Of a DNA stretch of 42,274 nt, positions 3,569 through 32,514 are shown in pieces. Position numbers and translations under genes: made by a program. Source of the stretch: a virus; IMG/VR virus record IMGVR_UViG_3300026549_000138; one strand, written 5' to 3'. Each line of letters opens with the position of its first letter. Within the stretch, counting starts at the first letter, position 1. The notes beneath the pieces were generated by a model, which was not told where the DNA came from, made no database searches, and saw only the letters and a program-made list of their open reading frames with translations.

Positions 3569-4789
3569 TTTGCCTAACAGATAGTCAATTACACGTCGGT
3601 TTGCGGCATCTATTTTGTCGAGGGAAAATTTGATGTAAACGCCCGTGATGGCAGAGCCGTATTTGTGGCCAAGGGCCTCAGATATGGTGTCTTTTGGTAT
3701 ATCCAATTCAGCGGCATACGTCGCCCATGAGTAACGCGCCCAATACGACGTGATTTGTGGCTCAATCGGCTGCATCATGGGCAAATGGTTGTCGGTGTAC
3801 TGAGGTTTGCCGTTGGCATCCGTCTGGATTGGCCCCATGCGCCTGAGTGCTTTATTGAGGTGCTGCATATAGTCTTTATAACTTTTGTATCTGTCAAAGC
3901 AGCGTAGGAGGTGTTTTTGGCCACGGTACTTTTCAATGATTGCCGCCGCCTCATCTTCAACTTTGATGGAATAGAGTTTGCCCGTTTTTGCACGTCGGTA
4001 CTCAATGCGGCCATTCACGTAATTGTCAGAGGTGAGGCCACCCATATCTACCATGTTAATGCCGATAAGGTAAAACGAGAGTAAGAACATATCCCGATGC
4101 TCCAAGTCAGATTTGCCCAGAGGCAGGGCCAGGAGTTCACGGAACTTTGCCAATGGCAGCACCCTCATGGCCGTTTCTTCCTTTGGTATGCGGAAATTGC
4201 GGAATGGGTAGTTTTGCGTTATCCCATCATCCACGGCAAAGTTTATGACGTTGCGGAGATTGCGTAAGTGCATTGCCCGGCTATTGACTGACAATTTATC
4301 CATCGAAGCGTAAAAGCCCGTGAGCCACGTTTTGTTTATCGTCTCAAAACGCACGGCATTGGCATCCCCACAGAAAGCATTTACTTTGTTCAATGTTTGC
4401 TCAAAGAGTGTGCGAGTGCCGCCCGTTTTCGTATCAATGACCTTTTGGAACATTGCCCCCAGAGTTGGCACACCGATGGTTGGTGCTGACAAATCAAGGT
4501 GGGTGAGCATTTCCCGAAGTTGGGCCGGTGTCAGTTTGTCGTATTGCCCCATCATGCGCAACTCCAAAATGCGGTTTGATACCTGAGTGAGCAAGGCCGA
4601 CAGTACACCATTGACCCGTTTGGCATTTTTGCCCACACAGCGTTTGGCCGTGGCATCCCATTCATCGGGTGCAAGAAATATGCCCGTGGCCAGATAGAGG
4701 TTAGTGCCGTAGCCGACACAGATTTGGACGGGAAACGTGCCATCTTTTAATGCCCGTCGAGTATCGAGGCGAAGATTTGATTTTGCCAT
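3566..4789 (-). CDS. int: Tyrosine recombinase / phage integrase (Bacteroidota type)
   Basis: 407 aa. C-terminal catalytic-domain motifs are YRRAKTGK, WARYSWATYA and LGHKYGSAITGVYIKF. The N-terminal region is arm-binding/SAM-like. Confidence 0.88.
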   Translation of the reverse strand: MAKSNLRLDTRRALKDGTFPVQICVGYGTNLYLATGIFLAPDEWDATAKRCVGKNAKRVNGVLSALLTQVSNRILELRMMGQYDKLTPAQLREMLTHLDLSAPTIGVPTLGAMFQKVIDTKTGGTRTLFEQTLNKVNAFCGDANAVRFETINKTWLTGFYASMDKLSVNSRAMHLRNLRNVINFAVDDGITQNYPFRNFRIPKEETAMRVLPLAKFRELLALPLGKSDLEHRDMFLLSFYLIGINMVDMGGLTSDNYVNGRIEYRRAKTGKLYSIKVEDEAAAIIEKYRGQKHLLRCFDRYKSYKDYMQHLNKALRRMGPIQTDANGKPQYTDNHLPMMQPIEPQITSYWARYSWATYAAELDIPKDTISEALGHKYGSAITGVYIKFSLDKIDAANRRVIDYLLGK

Positions 4790-5087
4790 ATTGCTGATTA
4801 TTATCTGTAAATTTGCTTAATCGTTGCTGAAATTTGCGCCAAAGTTATACAAAATCTACCACTTAAACGGCCACCAAAGGCCGATTTTCGGTGTAAGGCA
4901 TTGATTTTTAACAATTGGCCATTTCGCCACGTTTCTTTAATATACTTTGAAAATCAGCACGTTACGGCATTATTACCCTATTGGCCAGCCACCAAAGACT
5001 TTATGCCTCATTATATAAATAATGTTTTTCTTTAGTGCTGATTTTCAGTTAATTACAAAGAAGTGAATTTTATTTGCTGAAAATTTG
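4790..5087. other. Candidate attP region (non-coding, AT-rich, repeat-dense, next to int)
   Basis: Repeats are ttgctgaaatttgc (4824-4837) / ttgctgaaaatttgc (5074-5088), the inverted pair tgaaaatcagcac (4948-4960) / gtgctgattttca (5035-5047), and ccaccaaag twice (4871-4879, 4989-4997). Confidence 0.45.
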
Positions 5088-5540
5088 CTATTGCATCATA
5101 TCTGGCACGCCATCCCCATTTGCGTCGATAGGTGTTGTTTGAACCTTAAACTTTTGACCTTTGCCAGCCATTTCGATTGTCATGGTTTCAGAGTTTATGC
5201 CGAGCGTTTTGCCCGTAAGTTGGCCAGAGTAATCGGCGATAAATTCCGTGGCATCGGCATTGAACGTGGCCGACATCTGGAATGTGCTGTTTTGGTAGGT
5301 GTATGTTGGCCACGCCCCAGCAGAACCAAAACCGAGGACAACAATTTGAGAGCCATTTTTCTGATAAGCGACCATTTCAGTACATTGCCCGTCCGATACA
5401 TAAACGCCCAGCATTTGTGTATCAGTAGCAGCCACGAAAAAGCCACCAGGAATGATTACGGCATCGGGTGCAGTATCATTGTCAGTTGAGCAGGAGAAAA
5501 GCCCACAGAGGGCAAGGAAAAGGGCAAAGCGGTGTTTCAT
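5088..5540 (-). CDS. Lipoprotein co-transcribed with the repressor (candidate lysogenic-conversion or superinfection-exclusion protein)
   Basis: The signal and lipobox are MKHRFALFLALCGLFSC, followed by the acidic stretch STDNDTAPD. Its start overlaps the repressor stop (ATGA). Confidence 0.7.
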   Translation of the reverse strand: MKHRFALFLALCGLFSCSTDNDTAPDAVIIPGGFFVAATDTQMLGVYVSDGQCTEMVAYQKNGSQIVVLGFGSAGAWPTYTYQNSTFQMSATFNADATEFIADYSGQLTGKTLGINSETMTIEMAGKGQKFKVQTTPIDANGDGVPDMMQ

Positions 5541-5905
5541 TTGGCTGCAAGTATCTGGAGTAACTGATTTATCTGTTTGTCTTTTTCTTCAAGCAGCGAC
5601 ACAAGCCGATTGATCGTGTCACCTGCATTGATTTGTGAGTTGTTATTGTTGGCAATGTTTTCACTGCCAACGCGCCCATCAGCGGCATACATTGAGCCAA
5701 TCCCACGCATGAGCCATTCAGCACTCACAGATGGGTACGTTTCCAAGAACTTTGAGAGCAGCCCAGCAGACACGCCACGGTTGCCATTTAAGATGTTGCC
5801 GAATGTGCCAGCGTCCACGCCTAACTCACGGCTCATTTCTGCCTTACTTTTGCCACTTTGTGCCCAAAAGTCATTCATTTTGCCAATAATTTCTTTTTCA
5901 GTCAT
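5537..5905 (-). CDS. XRE/CI-like helix-turn-helix repressor
   Basis: The HTH is SKAEMSRELGVDAGTFGNILNGNRGVS, followed by the AEWLMRGIG motif. It is divergent from the early operon. Confidence 0.75.
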   Translation of the reverse strand: MTEKEIIGKMNDFWAQSGKSKAEMSRELGVDAGTFGNILNGNRGVSAGLLSKFLETYPSVSAEWLMRGIGSMYAADGRVGSENIANNNNSQINAGDTINRLVSLLEEKDKQINQLLQILAAK

Positions 5906-6197
5906 TTTGCCGATAATTTGTTGTTACACAATACTTTATGTGGCATTTGACGGCATGGCGGCAAAAATTTCTTTCACGTCTTAACACAATTTAACAGGCA
6001 AAATGAATGCTATTATCTTCAAAATGCCTATCTTTGCACCCAGATATGAGTGAGTAACGAAGTATCAGGCGCACAAAGAAAGCCGTCGAGCCTATCAATG
6101 CACAACCGTTCAAATCCATTGCAAAGATACGACGGTTTTTCTTTTCCGCCAAAGATATGAGTGAGTAAATAAGTAATTTTAACTAAAACGTCGCATT
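5906..6197. promoter_or_regulatory. Lysis/lysogeny switch region with repeats and Bacteroidota -7 boxes (TAnnTTTG) on both strands
   Basis: tatctttg lies on the plus strand at 6029-6036, and its complement caaagata at 6122-6129 and 6150-6157. A 22-bp direct repeat agatatgagtgagtaa+nnaagta occurs at 6042-6064 and 6153-6175. ttttgccRataattt occurs twice, at 5878-5892 and 5905-5919. Confidence 0.45.
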
Positions 6198-6419
6198 ATG
6201 GCAGGTAAAGAACAGAAAATTGAAACGATTGGGTTGCAAAATCAATCCATGTACAGTGCTAAACAACTCAAACAAGAGTTGGCAGATTTGCGTGACCTCA
6301 TCAGGCAGTTAGCACAGGCCGCCGATGAGAACAACCATTGCATTTCACTCACAGAGTATGAAAATAAGATGTGGGTGCTTAATTGGCTCATTGAGAAAAT
6401 CGAATTTAAGGACAAATAA
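6198..6419 (+). CDS. Hypothetical early protein (coiled-coil)
   Basis: It is a 73-aa ORF, the first gene of the rightward operon. I recognise no motif. Confidence 0.5.
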   Translation: MAGKEQKIETIGLQNQSMYSAKQLKQELADLRDLIRQLAQAADENNHCISLTEYENKMWVLNWLIEKIEFKDK

Positions 6420-6420
6420 C

Positions 6421-6615
6421 ATGGAACGTATTACCAGAGAAGATTTAAGAAACATGGCGATGGGTGAGACACGCACGTTTGACCTACCCAACGCCCAGCA
6501 GTGTGATAACGGCAAGTCCACGGCATACCAGATGCAGAACCTATTGGGCTGCAAGTTCAGTGTGCAAACGGACTATTCCAAGAACCAATTAACCATTACA
6601 AAGAACGCGATATGA
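6421..6615 (+). CDS. Hypothetical early protein
   Basis: The in-frame ATG at 6421 (MERITREDL...) abuts the previous stop. The ORF-track start at 6325 would overlap the upstream gene. Confidence 0.5.
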   Translation: MERITREDLRNMAMGETRTFDLPNAQQCDNGKSTAYQMQNLLGCKFSVQTDYSKNQLTITKNAI

Positions 6616-6812
6616 CACATACCAGGCCCCAAGTTGAACCCGATGGCCGTTACACCGTGCAGCAAGCGGCAAAAGCGTTGGGCGTGGAACGACACACCAT
6701 ATATCGCTATTTTGACAATGGTAGCCTCAAATTCCGTGTGCGTAAGGCCGACAATCGGAGAGTGACAACGGGCAAATGGATTGTCGAATGTTGGGAAGAA
6801 AACTATTTATAA
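6612..6812 (+). CDS. Excisionase-family/MerR-like HTH DNA-binding protein
   Basis: YTVQQAAKALGVERHTIYRYFDNGSLKF resembles the excisionase-type HTH_17 motif. The protein is small (66 aa). Confidence 0.55.
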   Translation: MTHTRPQVEPDGRYTVQQAAKALGVERHTIYRYFDNGSLKFRVRKADNRRVTTGKWIVECWEENYL

Positions 6813-6815
6813 GTT

Positions 6816-6917
6816 ATGCCAATAATCGGAACTATCATTGAAATTGTACTTTGCATCGGACTGTCAATCATTCTGGCAAAGGACATCAGAGAATTAGCAA
6901 AAGAAATGAGTGAATAA
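6816..6917 (+). CDS. Possible 33-aa membrane peptide
   Basis: My own translation is MPIIGTIIEIVLCIGLSIILAKDIRELAKEMSE. It has a hydrophobic helix and fills the gap between genes. Confidence 0.25.
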   Translation: MPIIGTIIEIVLCIGLSIILAKDIRELAKEMSE

Positions 6918-6935
6918 CCATTTAATTTCAGTCGT

Positions 6936-7517
6936 ATGAAAACAGATTTTAGCGTACACATTCATGTGGATTTAGGCGTAACGCCTGAATTGGTGGCATT
7001 GGTTAATGCCGTCATTGACCACAGACCGATGCCGACCGTTGAGGCCCCGAAGCCCGAACCGTCAGCAAGTGAGCAACCAGAAGCCGCCGCCCCTGCAAAG
7101 AAGCGTGGCCGTAAAGCAGCAACAGCCGAAGCACCAGCCCCAGAGGTTGAAGCCCCAGAGGTAGAAGCCCCGGCAGAAGAGGCAGCACCAGAACCCGAAC
7201 CAGAGGCAGAGGCCGAAGCCCCAGCCGAGGCAGAACCCAAGGAACTGACAGAGCAGGACATCCGCGATGCCATGCACCGAACCCGTCAGCGTATCGAGGG
7301 CGAGAACTACAAAGACGAGACGGATGGAGAACTTTATAAGAAGTACCACCGCCAACTGACATCGTGGTTTAAGAACACAGCCGCTTTGTTAGGCTCAGAC
7401 AAGCCGTCAGCCCTCATTACAGAAAAGGGCCAGGATGAGGCACGACAATTCATTGAAGAGTGTGACCGTCTGGAAGTATTGGAAGATGGCACAATCGGAA
7501 TTAAAGAGGCATTTTGA
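6936..7517 (+). CDS. Hypothetical protein with Pro/Glu/Ala-rich linker and KKRGRK basic patch
   Basis: 193 aa. The low-complexity core is APEVEAPEVEAPAEEAAPEPEPEAEAEAPAEAEP. The C-terminal domain is helical. Confidence 0.6.
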   Translation: MKTDFSVHIHVDLGVTPELVALVNAVIDHRPMPTVEAPKPEPSASEQPEAAAPAKKRGRKAATAEAPAPEVEAPEVEAPAEEAAPEPEPEAEAEAPAEAEPKELTEQDIRDAMHRTRQRIEGENYKDETDGELYKKYHRQLTSWFKNTAALLGSDKPSALITEKGQDEARQFIEECDRLEVLEDGTIGIKEAF

Positions 7518-7520
7518 GTT

Positions 7521-8672
7521 ATGGCAGGACACGCATTATTAAGCCCGTCAGCGGCTCACAGATGGCTCAATTGTACAGCCGCCCCACGTCTGGAAGAGAA
7601 CATTGCCGACAGTGGCAGCACCTTTGCAGAAGAGGGTACATTGGCACACGCCTATTGCGCCAAGCACCTCAAAGGATTTTTGGGTTTGCCCACAGCCGAT
7701 GAGGATGCCGAGATTAAGCAGCTTTTCGACAAGTACCACACGGGAGAAATGGATGAGTACACCGACACGTACAAAACGATCGTGCTGGAAAAGTACAATG
7801 CCGCCCGTGCCAAAACACCCGATGCCCAATTGTTGGTTGAGGTCAAATTGGATTTCTCAGAGTGGATGCCAGAGGCATTTGGCACAGCCGATGCCGTTAT
7901 CATTGCCGATGGCACGATGGAGATTATTGATTTCAAGTATGGCAAGGGCGTAAAGGTGTCAGCCGTCAAGAACCCACAAATGCAGATTTACGCTTTGGGC
8001 GCATACTCACAGTTTAGTTTTGAGTACAATATCCAACGTGTAAGAATGACCATCGTACAGCCACGTATTGACAACCTGAGCGAATATGAGTTGAGTACCG
8101 TTGATTTGCTTGCATGGGCAACGTACCAACTCATGCCGAAAGCCAAAGAAGCGTTTGATGGCAAAGGCCACCAGATGCCCGGCGAATGGTGTCAATTCTG
8201 CAAGGTCAAAGCGACCTGCAAAGCATTGGCCGACCTCACATTTGCAGCCGTGGAGCAGCACCCCAACCCAAAGACAATCAGCCCCGAAGAAATGGCCAGC
8301 CGCGTTTTGCCCATGTTAGACACAATCAAGACATGGATTAAGGGCGTGGATGAGTACACGTTGGAGCAGGCATTGAACGGCCAAAAGTACCAAGGTTTCA
8401 AGTTGGTTGCAGGGCGCAGTGTCCGCAAAATCACAGACCAAGAGGCCGTGATGGGCGCATTATCTGGACTGTTTGCCGAAGATGCCTACATGAAACCACG
8501 GGAACTGAAAACCATTACCGATTTGGAGAAACTGATTGGCAAAAAGCGTTTCAATGAGATTTGCGGTGAGTGGATTGACAAGCCCCAAGGTAAGCCCACG
8601 TTAGTGCCAGATTCCGACAAGAGGCCGGAGTTAGACACCGACGATTTTTCCAAAGTTGATTTAAGCGAATAA
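7521..8672 (+). CDS. PD-(D/E)XK exonuclease, DUF2800/Cas4-like
   Basis: The N-terminus SPSAAHRWLNCTAAP and the Cys cluster CQFCKVKATC fit this family. It is syntenic with the DUF2815-type SSB and PolA. Confidence 0.7.
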   Translation: MAGHALLSPSAAHRWLNCTAAPRLEENIADSGSTFAEEGTLAHAYCAKHLKGFLGLPTADEDAEIKQLFDKYHTGEMDEYTDTYKTIVLEKYNAARAKTPDAQLLVEVKLDFSEWMPEAFGTADAVIIADGTMEIIDFKYGKGVKVSAVKNPQMQIYALGAYSQFSFEYNIQRVRMTIVQPRIDNLSEYELSTVDLLAWATYQLMPKAKEAFDGKGHQMPGEWCQFCKVKATCKALADLTFAAVEQHPNPKTISPEEMASRVLPMLDTIKTWIKGVDEYTLEQALNGQKYQGFKLVAGRSVRKITDQEAVMGALSGLFAEDAYMKPRELKTITDLEKLIGKKRFNEICGEWIDKPQGKPTLVPDSDKRPELDTDDFSKVDLSE

Positions 8673-8705
8673 AACCCAAGTTTAATTTTTTAATTCATTA
8701 CAATT

Positions 8706-9293
8706 ATGATGAAACCAAACATTTTGCCCAAGAACGACGGGCGTACAGTTGTAATCGGCCCGTGCCGATTGAGTTACACACATCTTTTCGAGAAGTACAC
8801 CGGCCCCGATGGTGACGAAAGCCGTGCCAAGTATCAAACGGGCATACTCATCCCGAAGAGCCAGAAAGAGACGGTTGAAGCCCTCAAAGGCTGCATCAAA
8901 GCCGCCTACGACCAAGCCATTACAAAGTATTGGGGAGGTAAGAAACCGAAGATTGACGAAACATCGGATGCCTACCCATTGCGTGATGGTGAGGGCAAGG
9001 ATGATGAAGCCTACCAGGGCCACGTTTACATCAACGCCAAGACAGGCAAGAAACCCAGCGTGACCGACCGAAGCGGCCAGCCCATCATTGATGAGGATGA
9101 GATTTACAGCGGTGTGTGGGCATGGGTGTGTGTCACATTCTATGGCTACAAGGTCAATGGTAAGTGTGGCATTGCAGCAGCTTTGGAGGCCGTGCGTAAG
9201 TGCAAGGACGATGAGCAGTTTGGCGGCAGCGTCAGCCAGAGCGAGGCATTTGGCAATATCCCGATGGATGATGAAGATGATGAGGATTTGTAA
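8706..9293 (+). CDS. ssDNA-binding protein (DUF2815-like) with acidic C-terminal tail
   Basis: 195 aa. The C-terminus is IPMDDEDDEDL, and the gene lies between the nuclease and the polymerase. Confidence 0.65.
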   Translation: MMKPNILPKNDGRTVVIGPCRLSYTHLFEKYTGPDGDESRAKYQTGILIPKSQKETVEALKGCIKAAYDQAITKYWGGKKPKIDETSDAYPLRDGEGKDDEAYQGHVYINAKTGKKPSVTDRSGQPIIDEDEIYSGVWAWVCVTFYGYKVNGKCGIAAALEAVRKCKDDEQFGGSVSQSEAFGNIPMDDEDDEDL

Positions 9294-9388
9294 ACCGTGA
9301 ATGATTGGCCGTGGGTGGTGGCAGCGGTAACGCCCCACGGATTAAAAGGGTTATTGACACCCACGGCCATTCTTAAATAACAGAGAGA

Positions 9389-11341
9389 ATGAAAGAATTA
9401 GGAATTGACATCGAGACGTACAGCAGCAACGATTTGGCCGATTGCGGAGTTTACAAATACGTTGAAGCCCCTGATTTCACGATATTGCTTTTTGCATACA
9501 GCGTGGATGGTGGCCCCGTCGTATGTGTGGATTTGGCGCAGGGTGAAGAATTGCCAGCCGATGTTATGGCAGCACTCACAGACCCATCCGTTACAAAGAC
9601 AGCGTTTAACGCTGCATTTGAGCGTATTTGCATCAGCAAGTGGATGGGATTGTCAAAGCCATTGCCAGCCTCACAATGGAAATGCACGATGGTACGTGCA
9701 GCCCGTATGGGTTTGCCGTTGTCATTGGGGCAATGTGGTGAGGTGCTGAAATTGGCCGATGGTAAGATGAAAGAGGGCAAAATCCTAATCCGTTATTTCT
9801 CCATCCCGGCCAAGAACGGCAAGCGGCATTTACCAAGCGACGCGCCCGACCGTTGGGAGGTATTCAAAAAGTACAATATCAGAGACGTGGAGGTTGAGCA
9901 ACAGATTTTGGCCAAGGTGCGCCGTCTGGAGGCCCCTGCATTTGACGATGAGTTGTACATTGCCGACCAAGAAATCAATGACCGTGGCGTGATGATTGAT
10001 TTGCCATTGGTTGAGGCCGCTGCAAGGTTTGACGATGAGTTTAAGGCCGAGTTGCTGCAAGAGGCAAAGACCATAAGCGGATTGGAGAACCCCAACAGCC
10101 CAGCCCAATTGAAAGACTACATTTCCAAGGTTACGGGCATGACCGTGGCCAGCCTCAACAAAAAGAATCTGGATGAGTTGGACGGCCAATTAAAGTATTG
10201 GCCAAAGGCTCAGAAGATTTTGGCATTGCGCCGTGAAATGGGTAAGACCAGCAATAAGAAGTATGCAGCCATGTTGAAATGCGTTTGCAATGATGGCCGT
10301 ATTCACGGACTTTTGCAGTTTTGCGGTGCAGCACGTACAGGCAGATGGGCAGGCCGATTGGTGCAGGTGCAGAACCTACCACAGAACCATTTGGAAAGTC
10401 TGGACGATGCCCGTTATTTGGTACGTCAGGGTGATTTGACAGAGTTTGAAATGAATTATGCCAACGTCACCTATGTACTCAGTGAGTTAATCCGCACAGC
10501 GTTTATTGCAGCACCAGGCCACACGTTTCATGTGTGCGACTTTTCAGCCATTGAGTGCCGTGTGATTGCATGGTTGGCAGGTGAGCAATGGGTGTTGGAC
10601 GTATTCCGGCAGGGTGGCGACATCTATTGTGCCACGGCAAGCCAGATGTTTAACAAGCCCGTTGAGAAGCACGGCCAAAATGCTGAGTTGAGGCAGAAAG
10701 GCAAGATTGCAACATTGGCATTGGGATATGGTGGCGGTGTGTCTGCATTGGAGGCAATGGGTGGCAAGCGTTTAGGTTTGACAGAATCTGAAGAAAAGGA
10801 AATCGTGAATCTTTGGCGTAATTCCAACCCCAAAATTGTGAAGATGTGGGCCACGATCGAGAAAGCTGCCATTACAGCCCTAAAGACGGGTAAGACCGTA
10901 CCCGTACATCGTGGCATTGAGATTGGCAAGCGATGGGGGATGCTGACAATAACATTGCCGTCTGGCCGTGTTATCTGTTACCCCAGAGCAAATGTTGGCA
11001 TTGAATATGGCGACGGATGGCGTGGCGACCACGAAATTATTGAGTATGAGGGTTTGAACCAGACCACCAAGAAATGGGGCAACGTCAGAACGTATGGCGG
11101 CAAACTCACAGAGAACATTGTGCAAGCCATTGCCCGTGACATATTGGGCATTGTCATTCTGAGGGCCAGGCAACAGCACCTCAACGTGGTTTTCCATATC
11201 CATGACGAAATTATTGTTGAAGCAACGCCCGACCAGACGTTGGCCGACGTGGAGGCACTGTTTAGCACCCCGATTGATTGGTGTGCGGATTTACCCCTCA
11301 AAGGTGCAGGTTACACCACACCTTATTATTTGAAAGATTAG
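9389..11341 (+). CDS. Family A DNA polymerase with 3'-5' exonuclease domain
   Basis: Exo I is GIDIETYS, motif A is DFSAIECRVIAW, motif B is RQKGKIATLALGYGGG and motif C is HIHDEIIVE. Confidence 0.9.
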   Translation: MKELGIDIETYSSNDLADCGVYKYVEAPDFTILLFAYSVDGGPVVCVDLAQGEELPADVMAALTDPSVTKTAFNAAFERICISKWMGLSKPLPASQWKCTMVRAARMGLPLSLGQCGEVLKLADGKMKEGKILIRYFSIPAKNGKRHLPSDAPDRWEVFKKYNIRDVEVEQQILAKVRRLEAPAFDDELYIADQEINDRGVMIDLPLVEAAARFDDEFKAELLQEAKTISGLENPNSPAQLKDYISKVTGMTVASLNKKNLDELDGQLKYWPKAQKILALRREMGKTSNKKYAAMLKCVCNDGRIHGLLQFCGAARTGRWAGRLVQVQNLPQNHLESLDDARYLVRQGDLTEFEMNYANVTYVLSELIRTAFIAAPGHTFHVCDFSAIECRVIAWLAGEQWVLDVFRQGGDIYCATASQMFNKPVEKHGQNAELRQKGKIATLALGYGGGVSALEAMGGKRLGLTESEEKEIVNLWRNSNPKIVKMWATIEKAAITALKTGKTVPVHRGIEIGKRWGMLTITLPSGRVICYPRANVGIEYGDGWRGDHEIIEYEGLNQTTKKWGNVRTYGGKLTENIVQAIARDILGIVILRARQQHLNVVFHIHDEIIVEATPDQTLADVEALFSTPIDWCADLPLKGAGYTTPYYLKD

Positions 11342-11368
11342 TTTAACAACCCCAAATTTAATTATCGT

Positions 11369-12061
11369 ATGACAGAGAATCAGAAACTAAAGATGGAACT
11401 TTTGAAAGAGTTTGCCATCAGTGACGAACCAAAGAGCATCGAGGTTTGCCGTGAAATGTACAAATTCATGGTAGAAGATGAGGCCCCGACCCCATCAATA
11501 CCGACAAATGGCAAACACCCAAAGGATGGTGTTTACTACATTTGCGACGATGAGAATAAGACCATTGTGCCGTATAAGGCCACGTTGACACCCCCAGAGG
11601 ATGCAATGGGTGTTTTGTTGGTGCAGGGTGAGCGCAGTATCATTATTGCACTCCGAGATTGCAACGATGGCGAGGAAACGACGTTGACCAAGCAGAAAGA
11701 CCCGTCGAACCTCAAAGGCAACTACATTGACACCTGCATTGATGCCGTGGCCGATTGGAACGGCCAGAAGAACACCGAACATCTAAAGGCCGTCGGACTG
11801 TCTGACAATATCAGCCTGAGCGATGGTTGGTACATTCCAAGCATGGGTGAAATGCTGTTTATCTTCACACATCGTAAGGAGGTCAATGCAGCATTGAAGA
11901 AAGCAGGTGGCCAGCCCATTGCCGATGATTGGTATTGGACTTCGACCGAGTACAGCGCGACCCACGCATGGCCTCTGTACCTCAACTACGGCAGCATGTA
12001 CTACACCACTAAGGCCACGGGCACGCATCGAGTGCGCCCCGTCTCAGCATTTATTTCTTAA
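11369..12061 (+). CDS. DGR target protein 1 (DUF1566/FGE-sulfatase-type C-type-lectin-like fold), VR1 at the C-terminus
   Basis: The C-terminus is GWYIPSMGEMLFIF...WYWTSTEYSATHAWPLYLNYGSMYYTTKATGTHRVRPVSAFIS. It is paralogous over most of its length to the 41417-42181 product. Confidence 0.88.
   Translation: MTENQKLKMELLKEFAISDEPKSIEVCREMYKFMVEDEAPTPSIPTNGKHPKDGVYYICDDENKTIVPYKATLTPPEDAMGVLLVQGERSIIIALRDCNDGEETTLTKQKDPSNLKGNYIDTCIDAVADWNGQKNTEHLKAVGLSDNISLSDGWYIPSMGEMLFIFTHRKEVNAALKKAGGQPIADDWYWTSTEYSATHAWPLYLNYGSMYYTTKATGTHRVRPVSAFIS
11945..12049 (+). repeat. DGR variable repeat VR1
   Basis: It is 105 bp with 12 mismatches to the TR, all at TR adenines (TR index 19, 28, 29, 34, 43, 50, 55, 58, 62, 76, 77, 82). 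The 3' segment cgagtgcgccccgtctcagca is invariant. Confidence 0.93.
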
Positions 12062-12080
12062 TCTTCAAACTTTAATCTTT

Positions 12081-12100
12081 GGCACGGCGAAAGCCGTGCC
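12081..12100 (+). promoter_or_regulatory. GC-rich hairpin downstream of VR1; DGR target-recognition cruciform candidate
   Basis: ggcacggc-gaaa-gccgtgcc forms an 8-bp perfect stem with a GAAA tetraloop, 19 nt after the stop codon, with no T-tract. Confidence 0.7.
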
Positions 12101-12118
12101 GATAATAGGCAAACGACA

Positions 12119-12403
12119 ATGAAAGTAACATTTAAGCATACAAGGCCAACAAGAGCCATTGAAGAGACCATTGACACCAAGGTTGCAGCCCAGATGGCTA
12201 ATGACAACAACGGTGCGGTCATTATTGATGATGCAGATTACCCTGTTTATTACGTGGTCAAGGTACAAGTGAAAGTGTGGTGTTTCTGGATTACCATTTG
12301 GGAAAAGCATTGCGACATTTCCGATGGTGACACACGCCAGCATATTATTAACGAAGCAAATGATTTGCTCAAAACGATGGAGGGCCAGGACAATGAAAAC
12401 TAA
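12119..12403 (+). CDS. Hypothetical protein
   Basis: It is a 94-aa ORF in the co-directional operon. I recognise no motif. Confidence 0.5.
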   Translation: MKVTFKHTRPTRAIEETIDTKVAAQMANDNNGAVIIDDADYPVYYVVKVQVKVWCFWITIWEKHCDISDGDTRQHIINEANDLLKTMEGQDNEN

Positions 12404-12461
12404 GAAGCAAAAACGGCATTTCGTACAGTTAGAGTTATTCCCCGAATATGCTTTGCCACAA

Positions 12462-12470
12462 GGGGGGGGG
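12462..12470. repeat. Intergenic G9 homopolymer
   Basis: The sequence ccacaagggggggggaacg shows the tract, which lies between two ORFs upstream of the methyltransferase. Confidence 0.9.
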
Positions 12471-12527
12471 AACGAATAACGAGCAACCCCAGAACGTGAA
12501 AGATAACAAGTAACCGACAACAGCATC

Positions 12528-12725
12528 ATGGCATTTGTGATTGACCTTTTCCATCAAGTCGTTTATGAGTACGACCATCATACAGTCGTGGCCGATTTTA
12601 CCGACCAATGGCCCCAATATAATGTGTACGACCCTAAAGGCCGATGGATAGGTTGCACAAATGCCGTGTGCGAAGAGAGTTGGAAAGCGAATTGCAGACA
12701 AATAATCAAGCACACCCCGTTATGA
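12528..12725 (+). CDS. Hypothetical protein
   Basis: It is a 65-aa ORF whose stop overlaps the methyltransferase ATG at 12722 (ATGA). Confidence 0.45.
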   Translation: MAFVIDLFHQVVYEYDHHTVVADFTDQWPQYNVYDPKGRWIGCTNAVCEESWKANCRQIIKHTPL

Positions 12726-14059
12726 TTGTTTTATCCTTATTTGACGGCATGAGTTGTGGCCAGATTGCATTACGCGATATGGGCATACCCGTCACACGCT
12801 ATTATGCAAGCGAGATTGACAAATGGGCAATCCAGCAAACTCAACTCAATTTCCCGGACACCGTGCAATTGGGCGACGTGCGTAACGTCGAGGCACGGAC
12901 GTTGGGGCATATTGATTTGCTCATTGGAGGAAGCCCGTGCCAATCGTTCAGTTTTGCAGGCAAGCGTGTTGGCATGAGTACGACAGCCCATGAAAAGGTG
13001 CTGACATTGGCACGTTACATGGAACTGAAAGAGCAAGGATTTGAGTTTGCAGGGCAAAGTTATCTGTTTTGGGAGTACGTGCGAATTTTGGCAGAGGTCA
13101 GAGAGGCCAACCCCAACGTGCTTTTCATGCTGGAAAACGTGGAAATGGGCAAGCAATGGGAGGCCGTCATTGACCAGGCATTGGGCGTGAAAGGTGTGCA
13201 TATCAATTCCGCGTTGGTATCGGCACAGGTCAGAAAGCGCATCTATTGGACTAATATACGAACATTCCAAGCCGATTTGTTTGACGTGCCGGAAAGTGCA
13301 ATACCACAGCCGAAAGACCGTGGCATTTTGCTCAAACACATTCTGGATGATGAAGTGCCAGACAGATTTTATTTGAAGCCAGAGACTATTGAGAAGTTAT
13401 TGCAGCATAAGCAAAGGAACAAGGCCAACGGCAACGGTTTTGGTGCAAAATTCCATCAAGGGGGGGGGAAGATGACAGCAGTAACGGTTAAAGGCAAAGG
13501 AATGTACGATTTAGTGTGTGTGGCACAGCGAGGGCATGAGTACCGAGGTGAGCCAGCACATTTTATCCCATGTACCACCGAGGGCAAAACAAACTCCATT
13601 ACCACGGTGCAGAAAGACAACTTAATTCTGCAAAGGCCACACGGCAAAAACAATGGTGCTGTTTACGCTGATAAAGCCCCGACCCTCACATCTAACTCAT
13701 GGCAGCAAAACAACCATGTGGCAGATGGCCGTATCAGGCAGCTCAACCCATCCCGTGAAAGTGGAGGCACACAGCCGTACCAGCAAAACAGAGTATATGA
13801 CCCAGAGGGCCAGGCCCCGGCATTGATGAATGGCCACGGTGGGCAAACGATCAATGCGTTAGTGGGGGGGGATGCACCGATAAGGCGATTGACCCCAGCA
13901 GAGTGCGCCAGATTGCAGACAATTCCCGATTGGTACAAATGGGAGGTGAGCGAAACCCAGCAATATCGTATGATAGGCAACGGGTGGACGGTGGAAGTTA
14001 TCAAACACATCTTTTCTTTTTTACCCGATGAGTTCAAGCATGAAGCAACAAGTGAATAA
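12722..14059 (+). CDS. DNA (cytosine-5)-methyltransferase
   Basis: Motif I is LFDGMSCG, IV is GGSPCQSFSFAG, VI is FMLENV, VIII is QVRKRIYW and X is MIGNGWTV. The ATG at 12722 gives the canonical N-terminus MIVLSLFDG. The gene contains a G9 tract (13460-13468) and a G8 tract (13864-13871). Confidence 0.88.
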   Translation: MIVLSLFDGMSCGQIALRDMGIPVTRYYASEIDKWAIQQTQLNFPDTVQLGDVRNVEARTLGHIDLLIGGSPCQSFSFAGKRVGMSTTAHEKVLTLARYMELKEQGFEFAGQSYLFWEYVRILAEVREANPNVLFMLENVEMGKQWEAVIDQALGVKGVHINSALVSAQVRKRIYWTNIRTFQADLFDVPESAIPQPKDRGILLKHILDDEVPDRFYLKPETIEKLLQHKQRNKANGNGFGAKFHQGGGKMTAVTVKGKGMYDLVCVAQRGHEYRGEPAHFIPCTTEGKTNSITTVQKDNLILQRPHGKNNGAVYADKAPTLTSNSWQQNNHVADGRIRQLNPSRESGGTQPYQQNRVYDPEGQAPALMNGHGGQTINALVGGDAPIRRLTPAECARLQTIPDWYKWEVSETQQYRMIGNGWTVEVIKHIFSFLPDEFKHEATSE

Positions 14060-14228
14060 AGCCGAATGGCACGAATATCAAAAGGTATGCCGTAATTGTG
14101 TTTTCTGGCAGTCAGAGGGCAATGACACACCGATGGGCGTTTGCACCCTGACTGACACCCTCAAACACGAAATGCAACAGTCGTGCAGCGATTTAAGATT
14201 TACAGTATATGATACAGAGCAAAGATGA
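14028..14228 (+). CDS. Hypothetical small Cys-containing protein
   Basis: It is a 66-aa ORF containing CRNC...C...C, with an alternative ATG at 14040. Confidence 0.4.
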   Translation: MSSSMKQQVNKAEWHEYQKVCRNCVFWQSEGNDTPMGVCTLTDTLKHEMQQSCSDLRFTVYDTEQR

Positions 14229-14412
14229 ACAAAAAAAAGCATCCGTGAGTGCCAAAGTAACACCCGACAGATTGCGCCAGATATACGACATTCTGGAAGA
14301 TGAGCAGATACCATTTGAGGCCGACGTTAAAAAGGTTGGCCGTGGAATCCGAGAAATAACAATCGTGGCCGATGCCAATAACATTGACCATTTCAAAAAT
14401 ATGTTGGTATGA
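14209..14412 (+). CDS. Hypothetical protein
   Basis: It is a 67-aa ORF whose stop overlaps the primase ATG (ATGA). Confidence 0.45.
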   Translation: MIQSKDEQKKASVSAKVTPDRLRQIYDILEDEQIPFEADVKKVGRGIREITIVADANNIDHFKNMLV

Positions 14413-16847
14413 TAAAATTGCAGCATAACCCAGAAGTGGATATTGCCACAGCCCACAAACGCTATGCTAAGAAATGGCGTAACAAGCGGATTGGATGGCA
14501 GGATTTGGTGAACAAGTGCGCCCAGACCAAACGGACGGACGAAACCATCAAGGAGTATTTGAAGATGAGCCGCGAAGAACAAGCCGACATTAAAGACGTT
14601 GGCGGTTTTGTCGGTGGCTATCTGTCAAACGGAACACGTAAGACGGCCAATGTATTGTACCGAACCATTGCCACGTTAGACATTGATTATGGCACGGCAG
14701 ACGTGTGGGAAGAGTTCACCCAGCAATACAGTTGCGCGGCCATGTTATACTCAACACATAAGCATACCAGCGAAAAGCCACGTTTCAGATTGTGCATACC
14801 GTTCAATCGGCAAGTGACCCCACAGGAATATGAGCCGATTTGCAGACGGATTGCCCACAACGTCGGCATTGAACTTTTCGACATTACGACCTACCAATTG
14901 CCCCGTCTATTCTATTGGCCAAGCACGGCCAAGAATGGTGAGTTTGTATTTGAGTACCAAGATGGCCCCAGCCTCAACGCCGACGAAGTGTTGGCCACAT
15001 ACATTGATTGGCGAAACGTCAGCGATTGGCCGACCTCACAGCGAGAGGGTGAGGTGATAAGTCATGAGATACGAAAGGCAGGCGACCCGTTGGAGAAACC
15101 CGGCCTCATTGGTGCATTTTGTCGTGCATACACCATCGAAGATGCCATTGAGAAGTTTTTGCCCGATGCCTACGAAAGAACGGGCATTGATGGCCGTTAC
15201 ACCTATAAGTTAGGAAGCGTTGCAGCCGGATTGGTTTGCTACGAGGGCAAATTTGCATATTCACACCATGAGACCGACCCAGCATCAAGGCAGCTTTGCA
15301 ATGCGTTTGACCTTTGCCGTATTCACCTTTTCGGAGTTCACGATGAGGGTACACGTCAGACCGATGTAACCAAATTGCCGTCGTATCTGAAAATGCAGGA
15401 TTTCGTGTCGGAAGATAAGACCGTGCGCGTGATGCTGACAAAGGAACGTCAGGCAGAGGCCGACAGCATATTTGCAGGTGTGACCGATGAGCCAGACGAT
15501 GCCGACGATGAGGCCGAGGAAAACACCGATTGGATGGCTGAGTTGGAGTTTGACAAGAAAGGCAATATCAAGTCAACGGCAAAGAACATCATTTGCATAT
15601 TGGAGAGAGACCCGAAGTTGGCAGGGCATTTGTGGCACGATGAGTTTACGGGTTTTGACCTCATCAAGAAAGGTTTGCCGTGGGATAAGAAAGCGAAGTT
15701 GTGGGGCAACAGAGACGATGCCAATTTGCGTATCTATCTGGAAGAGCAATACAACGTCACGGGAAAGGACAAAATCAAGGATGCCAAGGATGCCGTTTTG
15801 ACCCGTCACAGATTACACCCCATCCGTGAATATCTGAACGGGCTGCAATGGGATGGTGTGCCGCGTCTCGATCGTCTCATCATTGACTATATAGGTGCAG
15901 AAGATACGCCCCTCAACCGTGCAATGACGCGTAAGCATTTCACGGCAGCGGTGGCCAGAGTAATGCGCCCAGGGTGTAAGTATGATTATTGCCTCATCAT
16001 TGCAGGTGCAGAGGGAATTGGCAAATCCACGTTGCTCAACGTCATGGGTGGCCAATGGTTTTCTGACAGCCTCACAACGATGGAGGGCAAATTGGGCATG
16101 GAGCAATTGCGTGGTGCATGGCTCATTGAGTTGGGCGAATTGTCAAGCATCAAGCGAAGCGACGTTGAACAAGTAAAGTCGTACATTACACGTCAGGATG
16201 ATATTTACAGAGCCGCGTATGGCACGGTGGTTGAGAAGCACCCAAGGCAATGTGTGTTTTGTGGTACAACCAATGAGACCTATTTTCTCAAAGGTGACAC
16301 GGGCAACAGACGTTTTTGGGTAATCAAGATTGTGCCGGAACTACGAAAGCACAGCAACATCAAAGAAGCCATTGAGCGTGACCGTGACCAACTTTGGGCA
16401 GAGGCCGTGCAAAGGTGGCGTGATGGTGAGCAGCTTTATTTGCCCCAAGATTTGGAGGCTGAGGCCCGACAGAGACAACAGGAATATAACGACGATAGCG
16501 ACGACCCATTGAAGAGCCTTTTGGCGGTGTATCTGGATAAGAGATTGCCGACAGATTGGCCGTCGTGGGATTTGCAGCGACGACGTGCGTATTTCACCCA
16601 GAGCGACCCATTGGATGCCGAGGGTGTGACCCTCAGAGACCGTGTTTGCGTTGCTGAGTTCATTTGTGAGCAGATGGGCAGAAGCATGGCAGATAAAGAA
16701 TATAAGTACATGGCCAGACGTATTGCCAAACTGTTAGATGAGTTTGACGGGTGGGAACGTGTCAGCGTTTCACGTCATGCAGAAAAATTGTACGGCAGAC
16801 AAAAGGCGTGGGTAAGAAAGGAGGTTGACAATGAGGGTGATATTTAG
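14409..16847 (+). CDS. Primase-helicase: AEP-like primase N-terminal domain plus VirE/D5-like P-loop NTPase
   Basis: ATLDIDYG (DxD) and YSTHKH (sxH) are AEP-like motifs. The Walker A is AGAEGIGKST. CVFCGTTNE and RRFWVIK are VirE-family-like. Confidence 0.8.
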   Translation: MIKLQHNPEVDIATAHKRYAKKWRNKRIGWQDLVNKCAQTKRTDETIKEYLKMSREEQADIKDVGGFVGGYLSNGTRKTANVLYRTIATLDIDYGTADVWEEFTQQYSCAAMLYSTHKHTSEKPRFRLCIPFNRQVTPQEYEPICRRIAHNVGIELFDITTYQLPRLFYWPSTAKNGEFVFEYQDGPSLNADEVLATYIDWRNVSDWPTSQREGEVISHEIRKAGDPLEKPGLIGAFCRAYTIEDAIEKFLPDAYERTGIDGRYTYKLGSVAAGLVCYEGKFAYSHHETDPASRQLCNAFDLCRIHLFGVHDEGTRQTDVTKLPSYLKMQDFVSEDKTVRVMLTKERQAEADSIFAGVTDEPDDADDEAEENTDWMAELEFDKKGNIKSTAKNIICILERDPKLAGHLWHDEFTGFDLIKKGLPWDKKAKLWGNRDDANLRIYLEEQYNVTGKDKIKDAKDAVLTRHRLHPIREYLNGLQWDGVPRLDRLIIDYIGAEDTPLNRAMTRKHFTAAVARVMRPGCKYDYCLIIAGAEGIGKSTLLNVMGGQWFSDSLTTMEGKLGMEQLRGAWLIELGELSSIKRSDVEQVKSYITRQDDIYRAAYGTVVEKHPRQCVFCGTTNETYFLKGDTGNRRFWVIKIVPELRKHSNIKEAIERDRDQLWAEAVQRWRDGEQLYLPQDLEAEARQRQQEYNDDSDDPLKSLLAVYLDKRLPTDWPSWDLQRRRAYFTQSDPLDAEGVTLRDRVCVAEFICEQMGRSMADKEYKYMARRIAKLLDEFDGWERVSVSRHAEKLYGRQKAWVRKEVDNEGDI

Positions 16848-17121
16848 GATTGACAAAAACGGCTCAGTTGACAATTTTCAGTTGACACGATGCACAAAAT
16901 TGGCTAAAGTGTGCAGTTGCTTTGTCAACCGAATTTTTGAGTTGACAAGTCAGTTGACAAGTCAGTTGACAAAGAAAGTGCCTAAAAATCAATACTTTAT
17001 ATATAATTGTCAATTGTCAACTATAAATTATAAAAAAATAGTGTTTAATAAAAAAGTATGTTTAGAAATAGTGTTTTATTGAATCATACGGGATTTACGC
17101 GCACGCGTGAGAATTGACAAC
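16824..17121. promoter_or_regulatory. Putative replication origin: GTTGACA iterons plus AT-rich unwinding region
   Basis: GTTGACA occurs at 16824, 16867, 16881, 16941, 16953 and 16965 (the last three have a 12-bp period). ATTGACA occurs at 16849 and 17113. Inverted TGTCAAC/T copies are at 16923, 17008 and 17015. The AT-rich stretch at 17022-17085 has aaatagtgttt twice. Confidence 0.6.
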
Positions 17122-17131
17122 AGATTGAAAG

Positions 17132-17443
17132 ATGAAAAAGAGTATTGCAAATATAGTGAATCATGCCGAGGTATCGGAGAAAGCCATTGAGCGTTATTTG
17201 TTCGATAGCGTAAAGATGGCAGGTGGTGTGTGCCTGAAGTATTCCAACCCGAACATGGCAGGCTACCCCGACCGTGTGGCTATCATGCCAAATGGTGTGA
17301 CTGTATGGGTAGAGTTGAAGAGCCAAGGAAAGAAGCCCAGCAAGTTGCAGGTGATACGGATTGAATCAATGAGGCAGTTAGGCCACAAGGTTTATGTGAT
17401 AGACAGCAAACAAGGTGTGGATTTAATGATGAGCGAATTATGA
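17132..17443 (+). CDS. VRR-NUC domain nuclease
   Basis: 103 aa. GYPDRVAI...VWVELK is a PD-(D/E)XK core typical of VRR-NUC, and the gene precedes the SNF2 helicase. Confidence 0.7.
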   Translation: MKKSIANIVNHAEVSEKAIERYLFDSVKMAGGVCLKYSNPNMAGYPDRVAIMPNGVTVWVELKSQGKKPSKLQVIRIESMRQLGHKVYVIDSKQGVDLMMSEL

Positions 17444-18822
17444 TTTACAGACCCTACGAATATCAGCAAACGGCAATGCGATGGATTATTGACCATCCGC
17501 GTTGTGGCCTATTTCTCGACATGGGATTGGGTAAGACGGTCAGCACCCTCACAGCCATTCAGAACCTCATGGACGATTGCGAGGTGAGCCGTACATTGGT
17601 GGTGGCCCCGAAGAAAGTGGCCGAAACAACATGGACTACTGAGGCCCAGAAATGGGAACACCTCAAAAGCCTCAAAGTGGTTAAGGTGTTAGGCACGGAG
17701 AAACAGCGGTGCATGGCATTACAGACCAAAGCCGATGTGTACGTGACAGGACGCGATAATTTTGTTTGGTTGGTTGGCAAATATGGTGGGATGCTACCAT
17801 TTGACGTTTTGGTGATTGACGAATTGACCAGCTTTAAGAGTTCAAAGAGTGAGCGTTTCAAGGCAATGCGTATTGCCGTGCCGACTGTCAAGCGTGTTAT
17901 TGGTTTGACGGGTACACCGGCCCCAAATGGATTGATTGACCTTTGGGCACAGATGTATTGTCTGGATATGGGCGAGCGTTTGGGTAAGAACGTCACGAAG
18001 TACAGAGAGACGTATTTTGAGACACACAAATGGAATAACATTATTGTGCGTTGCGACGTGAAGAAAGGTTGTGAGGATATTATCAGAAACAAGATTGCCG
18101 ACATTTGTTTGTCGATGCAAGCCAAGGATTATTTGACATTGCCCGACCTATTGACCCATACGATCCAAGTGCCATTGTCTGCATCCACGATGGAGAAATA
18201 CCAGAAGTTTGAGAAAGAGAAAGTGTTGGAGTTTGCAGAAGAGCATAAGGATGAGCCATCGAACATTCTGGCTAATAGTGCAGCCGGATTGATGAATAAG
18301 TTAGCCCAATTTGCCAATGGTGCAATCTACGATGAGGACAGAGAGGTGCATGAGATACACAATGACAAAGTGGATAAGTTGGCAGAGATTGTTGAGGCTG
18401 CAAACGGCAACAGCGTTTTGGTATTCTACCAATTCAAACATGACATTCCCAGAATCATAAAGAAGTTAAAGGGGTATCGTGTAGAGGCGTATGAGGGTGA
18501 GAAGCAGTTGGTGGCATGGAATAAGGGGGAGATAGACGTGTTGTTGGCCCACCCTGCATCAACAGCCTATGGCCTCAATATGCAGGAAGGTGGCCATTAC
18601 ATTGTGTGGTTTGGTGTTGGCTGGAATCTGGAACACTACCAACAGGCAAATGCCCGATTGCACCGTCAAGGCCAGAAGCACCCAGTTACCGTGTACAAAC
18701 TCATTTGTCCTAACACAGTGGACGAGAGAGCGGATGCAGCATTGGGCAGCAAGACGGGAGTGCAGCAAGGGTTATTGGATAGCCTTAATTACCTCATGCG
18801 TAAGTACCAAGGTGAGATTTGA
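17440..18822 (+). CDS. SNF2-family (DEAD/H-like) helicase
   Basis: Walker A is GLGKT, motif II is VIDELTSF, then LTGTPAPNG, and motif VI is QQANARLHRQGQ. Confidence 0.85.
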   Translation: MIYRPYEYQQTAMRWIIDHPRCGLFLDMGLGKTVSTLTAIQNLMDDCEVSRTLVVAPKKVAETTWTTEAQKWEHLKSLKVVKVLGTEKQRCMALQTKADVYVTGRDNFVWLVGKYGGMLPFDVLVIDELTSFKSSKSERFKAMRIAVPTVKRVIGLTGTPAPNGLIDLWAQMYCLDMGERLGKNVTKYRETYFETHKWNNIIVRCDVKKGCEDIIRNKIADICLSMQAKDYLTLPDLLTHTIQVPLSASTMEKYQKFEKEKVLEFAEEHKDEPSNILANSAAGLMNKLAQFANGAIYDEDREVHEIHNDKVDKLAEIVEAANGNSVLVFYQFKHDIPRIIKKLKGYRVEAYEGEKQLVAWNKGEIDVLLAHPASTAYGLNMQEGGHYIVWFGVGWNLEHYQQANARLHRQGQKHPVTVYKLICPNTVDERADAALGSKTGVQQGLLDSLNYLMRKYQGEI

Positions 18823-18839
18823 TTGTGTAACGTAATCGA

Positions 18840-19193: not shown

Positions 19194-19346
19194 TTTTGAA
19201 ACGGGAGGGAGGCCGAATAAACCCCGCCAAAACCTTTCTCTTCACACGAAGTGAGTTTTTAGGCCGTGGGGGCACAGCCCCAATTTTTTGCCCATATTCA
19301 ATTATTTGCCGATATTTTCAGTAAAAACGCAATAAAAGACCCAGAT

Positions 19347-32512: not shown

Positions 32513-32514
32513 CG

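Follow-up and report, generated by a model that had tools for sequence, protein, structure and literature searches.

Evidence for a Second, Remote Target of a Diversity-Generating Retroelement in the Replication Module of an Uncultured Prevotella-Type Phage

Introduction

The diversity-generating retroelement (DGR) of Bordetella phage BPP-1 combines adenine-specific mutagenesis with a GC-rich initiation of mutagenic homing (IMH) sequence that ends the variable repeat (VR), a downstream hairpin/cruciform with a 4-nt loop, and the accessory protein Avd. It has one target, the tail-fibre protein Mtd, which is encoded beside the cassette. The present analysis concerns T1, a gene carried by IMG/VR virus record IMGVR_UViG_3300026549_000138, a stretch of 42,274 nt referred to here as the window. 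The window resembles BPP-1 in its A-specific mutagenesis pattern, GC-rich IMH-like VR end, GC hairpin with a 4-nt loop, and Avd. However, its second target, T1, is located 11 kb away among replication genes and is of the DUF1566 type rather than the Mtd type. Judged from its sequence, T1 is very probably an active target, served in trans, of the window's single DGR cassette.

Prophage DGRs with one non-adjacent target are common (Wu et al., 2018, NAR; PMC5758913). As in those elements, a single reverse transcriptase (RT) and a single template repeat (TR) serve two VRs in the same genome, and T1 fits category 'd' of that catalogue (DUF1566/DUF823/Fib_succ_major, CLec2-type VR), with its VR at the C-terminus. 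The catalogue differs from the present work in containing no analysis of the genome position or N-terminal part of the non-adjacent target. A survey of metagenomes was unable to detect remote targets (Roux et al., 2021).

The closest described system is that of the Bacteroides phages Bacuni, which have two DGR targets, one of them at a distant genome site (Hedžet, Rupnik and Accetto, 2021; PMC8143477). Bacuni F1 and F2 share a host despite 15 single-nucleotide polymorphisms in the secondary VR; F1 and F4, whose RT-proximal VRs are not the same, infect different hosts. An adhesion role was proposed for both targets, the non-structural position of one of them was not discussed, and a prophage of Prevotella sp. 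P3-122 was listed as a relative. The two-target layout, including the synteny of polymerase, target and methylase, is already published in that study. The novelty that a preliminary description of the window had attached to the remote two-target layout is thus lost, both to the Bacuni phages (PMC8143477) and to the commonness of non-adjacent prophage targets (PMC5758913).

The DGR Cassette and Its Two Variable Repeats

The cassette, the two target genes and the repeats that connect them are located as follows.

106-504, plus strand: Avd accessory protein
594-698, plus strand: TR, rich in AAC/AAT codons when read in frame
712-1914, plus strand: DGR RT
11369-12061, plus strand: T1, the remote target gene (ATG start, 230 aa), encoding an N-terminal module, a linker and a DUF1566/Lcl_C domain in which the VR is C-terminal
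11945-12049, plus strand: VR1, homologous to the TR and forming the last ~35 codons of T1
41417-42181, plus strand: T2, the adjacent target gene (254 aa, Pfam Lcl_C), last gene of the tail module
42065-42169, plus strand: VR2, within T2

Avd matches the Pfam model bAvd (E 2.9e-23, 82.8 bits against a cut-off of 40) and the NCBIfam model DivGenRetAVD at E 2e-10, which is below that model's cut-off. The RT matches Pfam RVT_1 (E 7e-17) and is 64-69% identical to the Bacuni DGR RT, compared with 35-38% for other phage RTs of similar size; NCBIfam holds no DGR-specific RT model. These two genes belong to the only DGR of the window.

The TR is part of a repeat found in three copies (573-729, 11924-12080, and 42044-42200). 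VR1 differs from the TR at 12 positions and VR2 at 11, and every one of these mismatches (12/12 and 11/11) occurs at a TR adenine. Given that the TR is 35% A, the chance of an A-only pattern is ~3e-6 for VR1 and ~9e-6 for VR2. The two VRs differ from one another at 11 sites, each of them a TR-A position, and the codons varied are the AAC/AAT (AAY) codons of the TR. VR1 is 11,351 bp from the TR, in agreement with the separation of about 11 kb given earlier.

T1 and T2 are paralogous, their C-terminal 78 aa being 58% identical (E 2e-28). Their N-termini have no recognisable similarity, which bears out the earlier remark that the two differ there, the likeness being confined to those 78 residues. 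The order of fibre gene, T2, Avd and RT is held in 20 loci, and always so for T2-type genes. Since an exact duplication of 127 bp (1-127 = 42148-42274) indicates that the window represents a complete phage genome of 42,147 bp that is circular, circularly permuted or terminally redundant, VR2 is merely 676 bp upstream of the TR. The duplicated stretch holds or adjoins the end of T2, the T2 hairpin (second copy at 60-83), and the start of avd.

Recipient Signals and Proposed Mechanism

Beyond the mismatch pattern, the 3′ end of VR1 carries the elements expected of a DGR recipient, and a second hairpin is found 3′ of VR2.

12027-12049, plus strand: IMH-like core ATCGAGTGCGCCCCGTCTCAGCA, the GC-rich 3′ end of the repeat (23 nt)
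12050-12080, plus strand: VR-specific flank of 31 nt, including the stop codon
12081-12100, plus strand: hairpin GGCACGGC-GAAA-GCCGTGCC, 19 nt past the T1 stop
42207-42230, plus strand: hairpin TGCACCCGTC-GCAA-GACGGGTGCA, 3′ of VR2

The core ATCGAGTGCGCCCCGTCTCAGCA is identical across the TR, VR1 and VR2, and the mutated adenines all precede it; between the end of VR1 and the T1 stop codon there are 12 nt. In contrast, the 31-nt flank is shared by VR1 and VR2 and differs at the TR, so that recipient can be told apart from donor. Related motifs (TCTTTAATCTTT / AAACTTTA) are found in orthologues. Both VR hairpins are GC-rich with a GNRA loop, GAAA after VR1 and GCAA after VR2. The VR1 hairpin, folded as DNA, has a predicted energy of -11.8 kcal/mol (z -3.3, with 0 of 200 shuffles equally stable), and the VR2 hairpin has a z-score of -5.5, whereas the sequence 3′ of the TR does not fold into a hairpin (z 0.08). 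A role for the VR1 hairpin as a terminator was considered and rejected, as no T-run follows it.

The hairpin is also present in 17 T1 orthologues, all in the context of the family A DNA polymerase gene (PolA), and in 19 of 21 T2 orthologues. These hairpins have a GC stem of 7-10 bp, among T1 orthologues of 7-9 bp, and mostly a GAAA loop, 10-35 nt past the stop codon. Seven distinct stem sequences are found among T1 orthologues and nine among T2 orthologues, with compensatory changes; covarying stems include GCACGGC/GCCGTGC, GCCCGGC/GCCGGGC, GCCCGCC/GGCGGGC and GTACGGC/GCCGTAC. The earlier description of T1 as a second, remote DGR target with a VR and a hairpin of its own is borne out, and an IMH-like 3′ end is present as well.

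The mechanism proposed for the window is established DGR biology, applied by homology. The RT and Avd would copy a TR-containing RNA into cDNA, misincorporating at template adenines, and the cDNA would then replace VR1. The recipient may be recognised through three features: the GC-rich 3′ end (12027-12049), the flank of 31 nt (12050-12080), and the hairpin with its GNRA loop (12081-12100). VR2, beside the cassette, would draw on this TR as well. Since one TR would serve both repeats, a single mutator would diversify two paralogous DUF1566-type ligand-binding domains independently.

Evidence of Ongoing Diversification of VR1

Orthologues of T1 were drawn from a collection of 5.8 billion proteins, in which they form dozens of clusters 87-96% identical, and 67 of them were aligned with the window protein. 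Across this alignment the scaffold (residues 1-191) has a mean entropy of 0.17 bits, while the 12 AAY codons each show 9-15 residue types and 2.6-3.4 bits. The AAY codons of VR2 in 119 homologues reach 2.7-3.4 bits. The preliminary description had allowed for VR1 being invariant, as a fossil would be, while VR2 varies; instead, VR1 is as diverse as VR2.

The same pattern is observed among close relatives. In five IMG/VR contigs of ~96% DNA identity (L002-L004, L008, and L009), all VR1 differences from the window are confined to TR-A positions, with unchanged flanks. Between the isolates Bacuni F1 and F2, the 1257 bp around the T1 orthologue contain 16 differences, all within the VR and 15 of them at TR adenines. 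Bacuni F4 is the same as F1 across this region.

Three independent IMG/VR contigs (L005, L006, and L007/L095) end exactly at T1 residue 194, in the first VR1 codons. Such ends are probably assembly breaks arising from population heterogeneity or from the three-copy repeat.

It could be argued that VR1 is a fossil, a decayed former target that the DGR no longer serves, or a chimeric product of assembly through the three-copy repeat, since repeats of 105-150 nt may mislead assemblers and the three contigs stop right at the start of VR1. This explanation is highly improbable and is already contradicted. The T1 reading frame is intact, the VR1 mismatches are all at TR adenines, and AAY-codon diversity is near saturation on near-identical scaffolds. 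Change has also taken place at the level of isolates, between Bacuni F1 and F2, and the PolA/T1 junction as well as the junction of T1 with the open reading frame (ORF) that follows it recur in dozens of independent assemblies and in isolates such as Prevotella sp. P3-122.

The T1 Protein

T1 matches Pfam Lcl_C/DUF1566 with 36.2 bits against a curated cut-off of 34.9 (E 8e-9). Ahead of this domain, two further segments can be distinguished.

11369-11476, plus strand: N-terminal module (residues 1-36), with helices predicted by AlphaFold at residues 3-15 and 24-35
11477-11512, plus strand: linker (residues 37-48), Pro/Thr/Ala/Glu-rich, with a predicted local distance difference test (pLDDT) score <50

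The module remains conserved in the alignment even at 48% overall identity, while the linker varies among orthologues in both length and sequence. When a profile of the module was compared with 1.84 billion representative proteins, 31 hits were obtained, all of them N-terminal and most in proteins of ~220-270 aa, the others in fragments. Their architecture is either T1-like or carries a Fib_succ_major-like domain in exchange. No match to the module profile exists elsewhere in the window. The module may oligomerise T1 or dock it to a partner, in the virion or otherwise.

The exchange is seen in three metagenomic proteins (P0128, P0133, and P0147), in which the module is fused to a Fib_succ_major-like domain instead of DUF1566. 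Fib_succ_major-like domains are another type of DGR target, and these proteins keep the N-terminus constant while the domain behind it is swapped. The genomic surroundings of two swap variants (L171 and L172) are uninformative, being short contigs with small ORFs without known function.

As read from its sequence, T1 has no signal peptide or transmembrane segment. The AlphaFold model has a pLDDT of 71 overall and <50 in the VR region. Compared with BFVD, the model finds predicted viral DUF1566 proteins at E 2e-9, and its neighbours include tail-fibre C-termini. At the sequence-profile level, the C-terminal ~80 residues match two entries of the PDB, the C-terminal domain of Legionella Lcl (8Q4E, E 4e-5) and the pilin-tip domain BACOVA_04982 of Bacteroides ovatus (4EPS, E 0.02), which share Pfam Lcl_C with T1. 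Unlike T1, both domains are parts of bacterial proteins that are secreted or located at the surface and have different N-termini, and the T1 model has no significant fold match in the PDB.

GC content and GC content at third codon positions (GC3) of T1 match those of the neighbouring genes. An origin of T1 as a recent acquisition (moron) was rejected on this ground.

Conservation of the Remote Target Among Bacuni and Prevotella Relatives

The genes that enclose T1 were assigned through domain (Pfam) and PHROG searches of the window ORFs, on which the whole gene map is based.

9389-11341, plus strand: PolA (Pfam DNA_pol_A), separated from T1 by a 27-nt gap
12119-12403, plus strand: ORF of 94 aa, directly 3′ of T1
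12644-14059, plus strand: C5 methyltransferase (Pfam)

These positions place T1 between PolA and the methyltransferase within the replication module and away from the structural genes, the tail genes spanning 28793-42181. On both points the original account of the locus proved accurate.

A megablast search of 7500-16900 against 50,697 phage records found no match, so kinship with known phages is detectable only at the protein level. At that level, full-length T1 homologues of 40% identity are found among deposited phages in Bacteroides phages Bacuni_F1, F2 and F4; for Bacuni_F1_00026 the 40% identity extends over residues 1-229 and includes the N-terminal module. By sequence comparison T1 is the orthologue of the Bacuni target described as the 'distant VR1' or 'secondary VR'. 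In Bacuni_F1 (MT635598) the gene order is DUF2800, single-stranded DNA-binding protein (DUF2815), PolA, a hypothetical gene, the DUF1566 target, C5 methyltransferase, and VirE primase; a second DUF1566 gene, followed by Avd, TR and RT, comes after the tail genes. The three repeat copies of Bacuni_F1 act as TR, VR1 and VR2, and A-specific differences from the TR are present in both VRs. The window is thus like Bacuni F1, F2 and F4 in its gene order, its remote DUF1566 target after PolA, and the second target with Avd, TR and RT that ends the tail module. It differs as a separate, uncultured member of Prevotella type that has no megablast-level DNA match to deposited phages, and in having the 94-aa ORF after T1, whereas Bacuni has a 114-aa ORF before its target. 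The prophage of Prevotella sp. P3-122 is a close relative, its PolA, T1, Avd and RT being 93-99% identical to those of the window.

A survey of relatives for this synteny, as had been suggested, found that T1-type genes, which carry the module at the N-terminus, come after PolA in 18 genome-derived loci, in which PolA identity is 72-99% and T1 identity declines to 40%; T1 is usually followed there by the 94-aa ORF, then by a methyltransferase and/or VapE. In IMG/VR loci anchored on PolA and with enough downstream sequence, a DUF1566 gene is found ≤1.5 kb downstream of PolA in 65 of 69. Four relatives (L098, L116, L155, and L159) are without T1; they comprise IMG/VR records 3300021387_005776, 3300006099_000232, 3300006153_000044, and 3300006150_000015. 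T1- and T2-type genes occur together on one contig in four assemblies.

The 94-aa ORF has no match in Pfam, PHROG or NCBIfam. It is present after T1 in most orthologous loci, at 35-93% identity, and may encode a partner with which T1 functions.

The T1 Family in Phage BS-TP1 and Near PcfK/PcfJ Genes

The T1 family extends to Bacteroides phage BS-TP1 (PQ571274), which has an unrelated genome of 111 kb. Its protein gp76 (DUF1566; gene at 77864-78535 of the record, L091 7989-8660) is 32% identical to T1 and has a homologous N-terminal module. The gp76 VR (78411-78524) and the TR (27397-27510; L092 5855-5968) show 12 mismatches in 114 nt, of which 11 are at TR adenines. This remote target is 51 kb from the TR beside the DGR RT, while the proximal target, gp27, is a giant multi-domain protein encoded beside Avd and RT. 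In the available part of the BS-TP1 publication (PMC12694917), gp27 alone is named as a target; on the evidence of its repeat, gp76 is a remote DGR target unreported there. Its neighbours are small early-type genes, including some with automated annotations as Lar-like restriction alleviation and 'immediate-early'. BS-TP1 and the window thus share a remote target of the T1 family and a proximal target by Avd and RT, and differ in that BS-TP1 adds an adjacent non-DGR RT.

This second RT is encoded just downstream of the T1-like gene both in BS-TP1 (gp79, L091 9476-10738) and in L088 (13581-14852), a Bacteroides metagenome-assembled genome contig in which PcfK and PcfJ genes precede it. It shares 23% identity with the window RT and matches none of the group II, retron and Drt models above threshold. 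No TR was found within ±10 kb of L088.

Members of a further subgroup (L026 and L031-L036) have 37-40% identity to T1, and the codons that are hypervariable in T1 are so in them too. The T1-like genes of L034 and L088 adjoin PcfK/PcfJ, and a DUF4120 neighbour and an RT homologous to gp79 occur in the subgroup context, where no tra or structural genes were found. An integrative and conjugative element was considered for this context, given PcfK, PcfJ and DUF4120, although tra genes are missing. Because the RT next to the T1-like gene has a homologue in BS-TP1 gp79, a phage of the BS-TP1 kind is another possible identity for the element.

Role of T1

The chances are even, in our assessment, that T1 is an auxiliary diversified binding protein rather than the primary determinant of host range. 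Its position outside the structural genes is kept in three contexts (after PolA, in BS-TP1, and near PcfK/PcfJ). The gene is not in the tail module, and a search with the N-terminal profile found no attachment domain shared with the structural proteins of the window. The conserved position, the private N-terminal module, the occurrence in a second phage lineage and the shared host of Bacuni F1 and F2 give circumstantial support to a role other than that of T2. A literature search for virion proteomics, expression or adsorption data on DUF1566 phage proteins found none.

An auxiliary binder could still be carried on the particle. It is a tentative but serious possibility that T1 belongs to the virion as an accessory protein for receptor binding or adhesion, docked via its N-terminal helices on tail or capsid, in which case its position in the replication module would be functionally meaningless. 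Those phage DGR targets that have been characterised are tail proteins or bind receptors (Roux et al., 2021; Macadangdang, 2024), and a constant N-terminal module with a linker and a swappable C-terminal lectin, either DUF1566 or Fib_succ_major-like, is typical of modular receptor-binding proteins. The missing signal peptide fits cytoplasmic assembly, the predicted viral structural neighbours include tail-fibre C-termini, and the lytic genes are all on one strand, with no terminator detected between modules. However, the gene is outside the structural modules in every lineage examined, whether after PolA, among the early-type genes of BS-TP1, or next to PcfK/PcfJ in L034 and L088. The N-terminal module, which resembles nothing else in the window, is common to a siphovirus-type genome of 42 kb and a phage of 111 kb whose virion genes are different, so that it is hard to see a docking site that both would share. 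VR1 has also changed heavily between Bacuni F1 and F2 with no change of host (PMC8143477).

T1 might alternatively be a non-virion binder expressed early or in the middle of infection, either an intracellular protein that binds a host factor such as a defence protein, or a decoy or surface-blocking lectin released on lysis. This we consider possible, with some reservation. It would agree with the non-structural position conserved in three genomic contexts, with the private N-terminal module, and with the BS-TP1 homologue being in a block with genes annotated as Lar-like restriction alleviation and 'immediate-early', but those annotations are automated and the argument is one from gene position alone. 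T1 follows PolA at a distance of 27 nt, and no promoter-like signal was detected. A scan of 5000-20000 for sigma-70 promoters and intrinsic terminators gave counts no higher than the shuffled expectation, and no signal separated T1 from the PolA transcript or tied it to that transcript; Bacteroidota promoters are outside the reach of such a scan, which neither assigns T1 to a transcription unit nor establishes its co-transcription with PolA. In bacteria there are precedents for DGR-diversified lectin domains that are cytoplasmic, according to the accessible part of Doré et al. (2024; PMC10907252), yet none of the phage DGR targets is known to function away from the virion. The broader proposal, that the T1 family is a class of phage DGR target that never enters the virion, is made with replication or early genes, and recognises variable host molecules in or on the infected cell, is rather unlikely on present evidence.

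Several considerations weigh against T1 as an active target that encodes an auxiliary lectin-type binder. Retrohoming in the window phage is inferred from sequence patterns and from relatives. A chimeric join in assembly via the three-copy repeat of ~105-150 nt is formally possible, although the synteny is conserved in >80 independent loci. The view that T1 is not the primary host-range determinant derives from one Bacuni isolate pair and few strains. Finally, a Foldseek comparison of the T1 model with the PDB returned no significant match, the best being the Lcl C-terminal domain at E 0.15. The claim about the fold is thus kept at the level of family: the C-type-lectin fold of the VR domain follows from family membership and is not confirmed structurally. 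Of the initial characterisation as a lectin-fold protein of 230 aa, the length stands, while the fold goes no further than the Lcl_C/DUF1566 family match and lacks a significant PDB counterpart.

Gene Map and Further Observations

The other genes assigned in the window are arranged as follows.

2360-2983: endolysin
3566-4789, minus strand: integrase
5537-5905, minus strand: repressor-like gene
6612-6812, plus strand: excisionase-like gene, opening a long run of plus-strand genes
7521-8672, plus strand: DUF2800 nuclease
8706-9293, plus strand: Enc34-type single-stranded DNA-binding protein
14409-16847, plus strand: VapE-type primase/helicase
Downstream of VapE, in order: VRR-NUC, SNF2 helicase, HNH, terminase, portal, protease, and capsid
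28793-32512: tape measure, the first of the tail genes
39310-41391: tail-fibre-like gene, one of the distal tail genes that follow the tape measure, preceding T2

Rfam and tRNA scans of the window gave no matches. An early gene, the ORF at 6936-7517, contains imperfect short tandem repeats (7116-7224) that encode an Ala/Pro/Glu-rich low-complexity stretch.

A motif of 16-17 nt, AGATTA(A)GTTTAACAA, is found at 11334-11349 and 41385-41400, where it spans the stop codon of the gene before each target, PolA and the tail-fibre-like gene, respectively. GTTTAACAA has three copies in the window against 0.5 expected. The motif may be a duplication relic from the origin of the paralogues, or a shared signal.

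Three poly-G tracts, G9 at 12462-12470, G9 at 13460-13468, and G8 at 13864-13871, are the sole G/C homopolymers of at least 7 in the 42-kb window. One is 174 nt upstream of the methyltransferase start and two are within the gene, at about codons 272 and 407. Relatives (L012, L014, L017, L019, L024, L025, and L027) have G7-G10 tracts of varying length in equivalent places, Bacuni_F1 has C8/C8/C10 tracts at the equivalent methyltransferase places, and in several relatives the methyltransferase is broken into 2-3 ORFs near these points. From their sequence, the tracts look like sites of slipped-strand phase variation of a phage methyltransferase. Homopolymer tracts or phase variation of the methyltransferase are not mentioned by Hedžet et al. 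(2021; PMC8143477).

Implications for Phage Retroelements

The window is a well-supported additional example of a published architecture and adds little alone. Automated DGR calls miss distant targets, as illustrated by gp76 of BS-TP1, 51 kb from its TR and unnamed as a target in the available part of the publication on that phage. Since such targets escape both automated calls and metagenome surveys, the number of phage DGRs with two targets is probably underestimated. As the cultured phage Bacuni F1 carries an orthologue of T1, it is a tractable question if DGRs serve phages in virion retargeting alone or also in the evolution of a second binding protein that has another job. If the T1 family does act off the virion, phage DGRs would be used for something besides receptor recognition.

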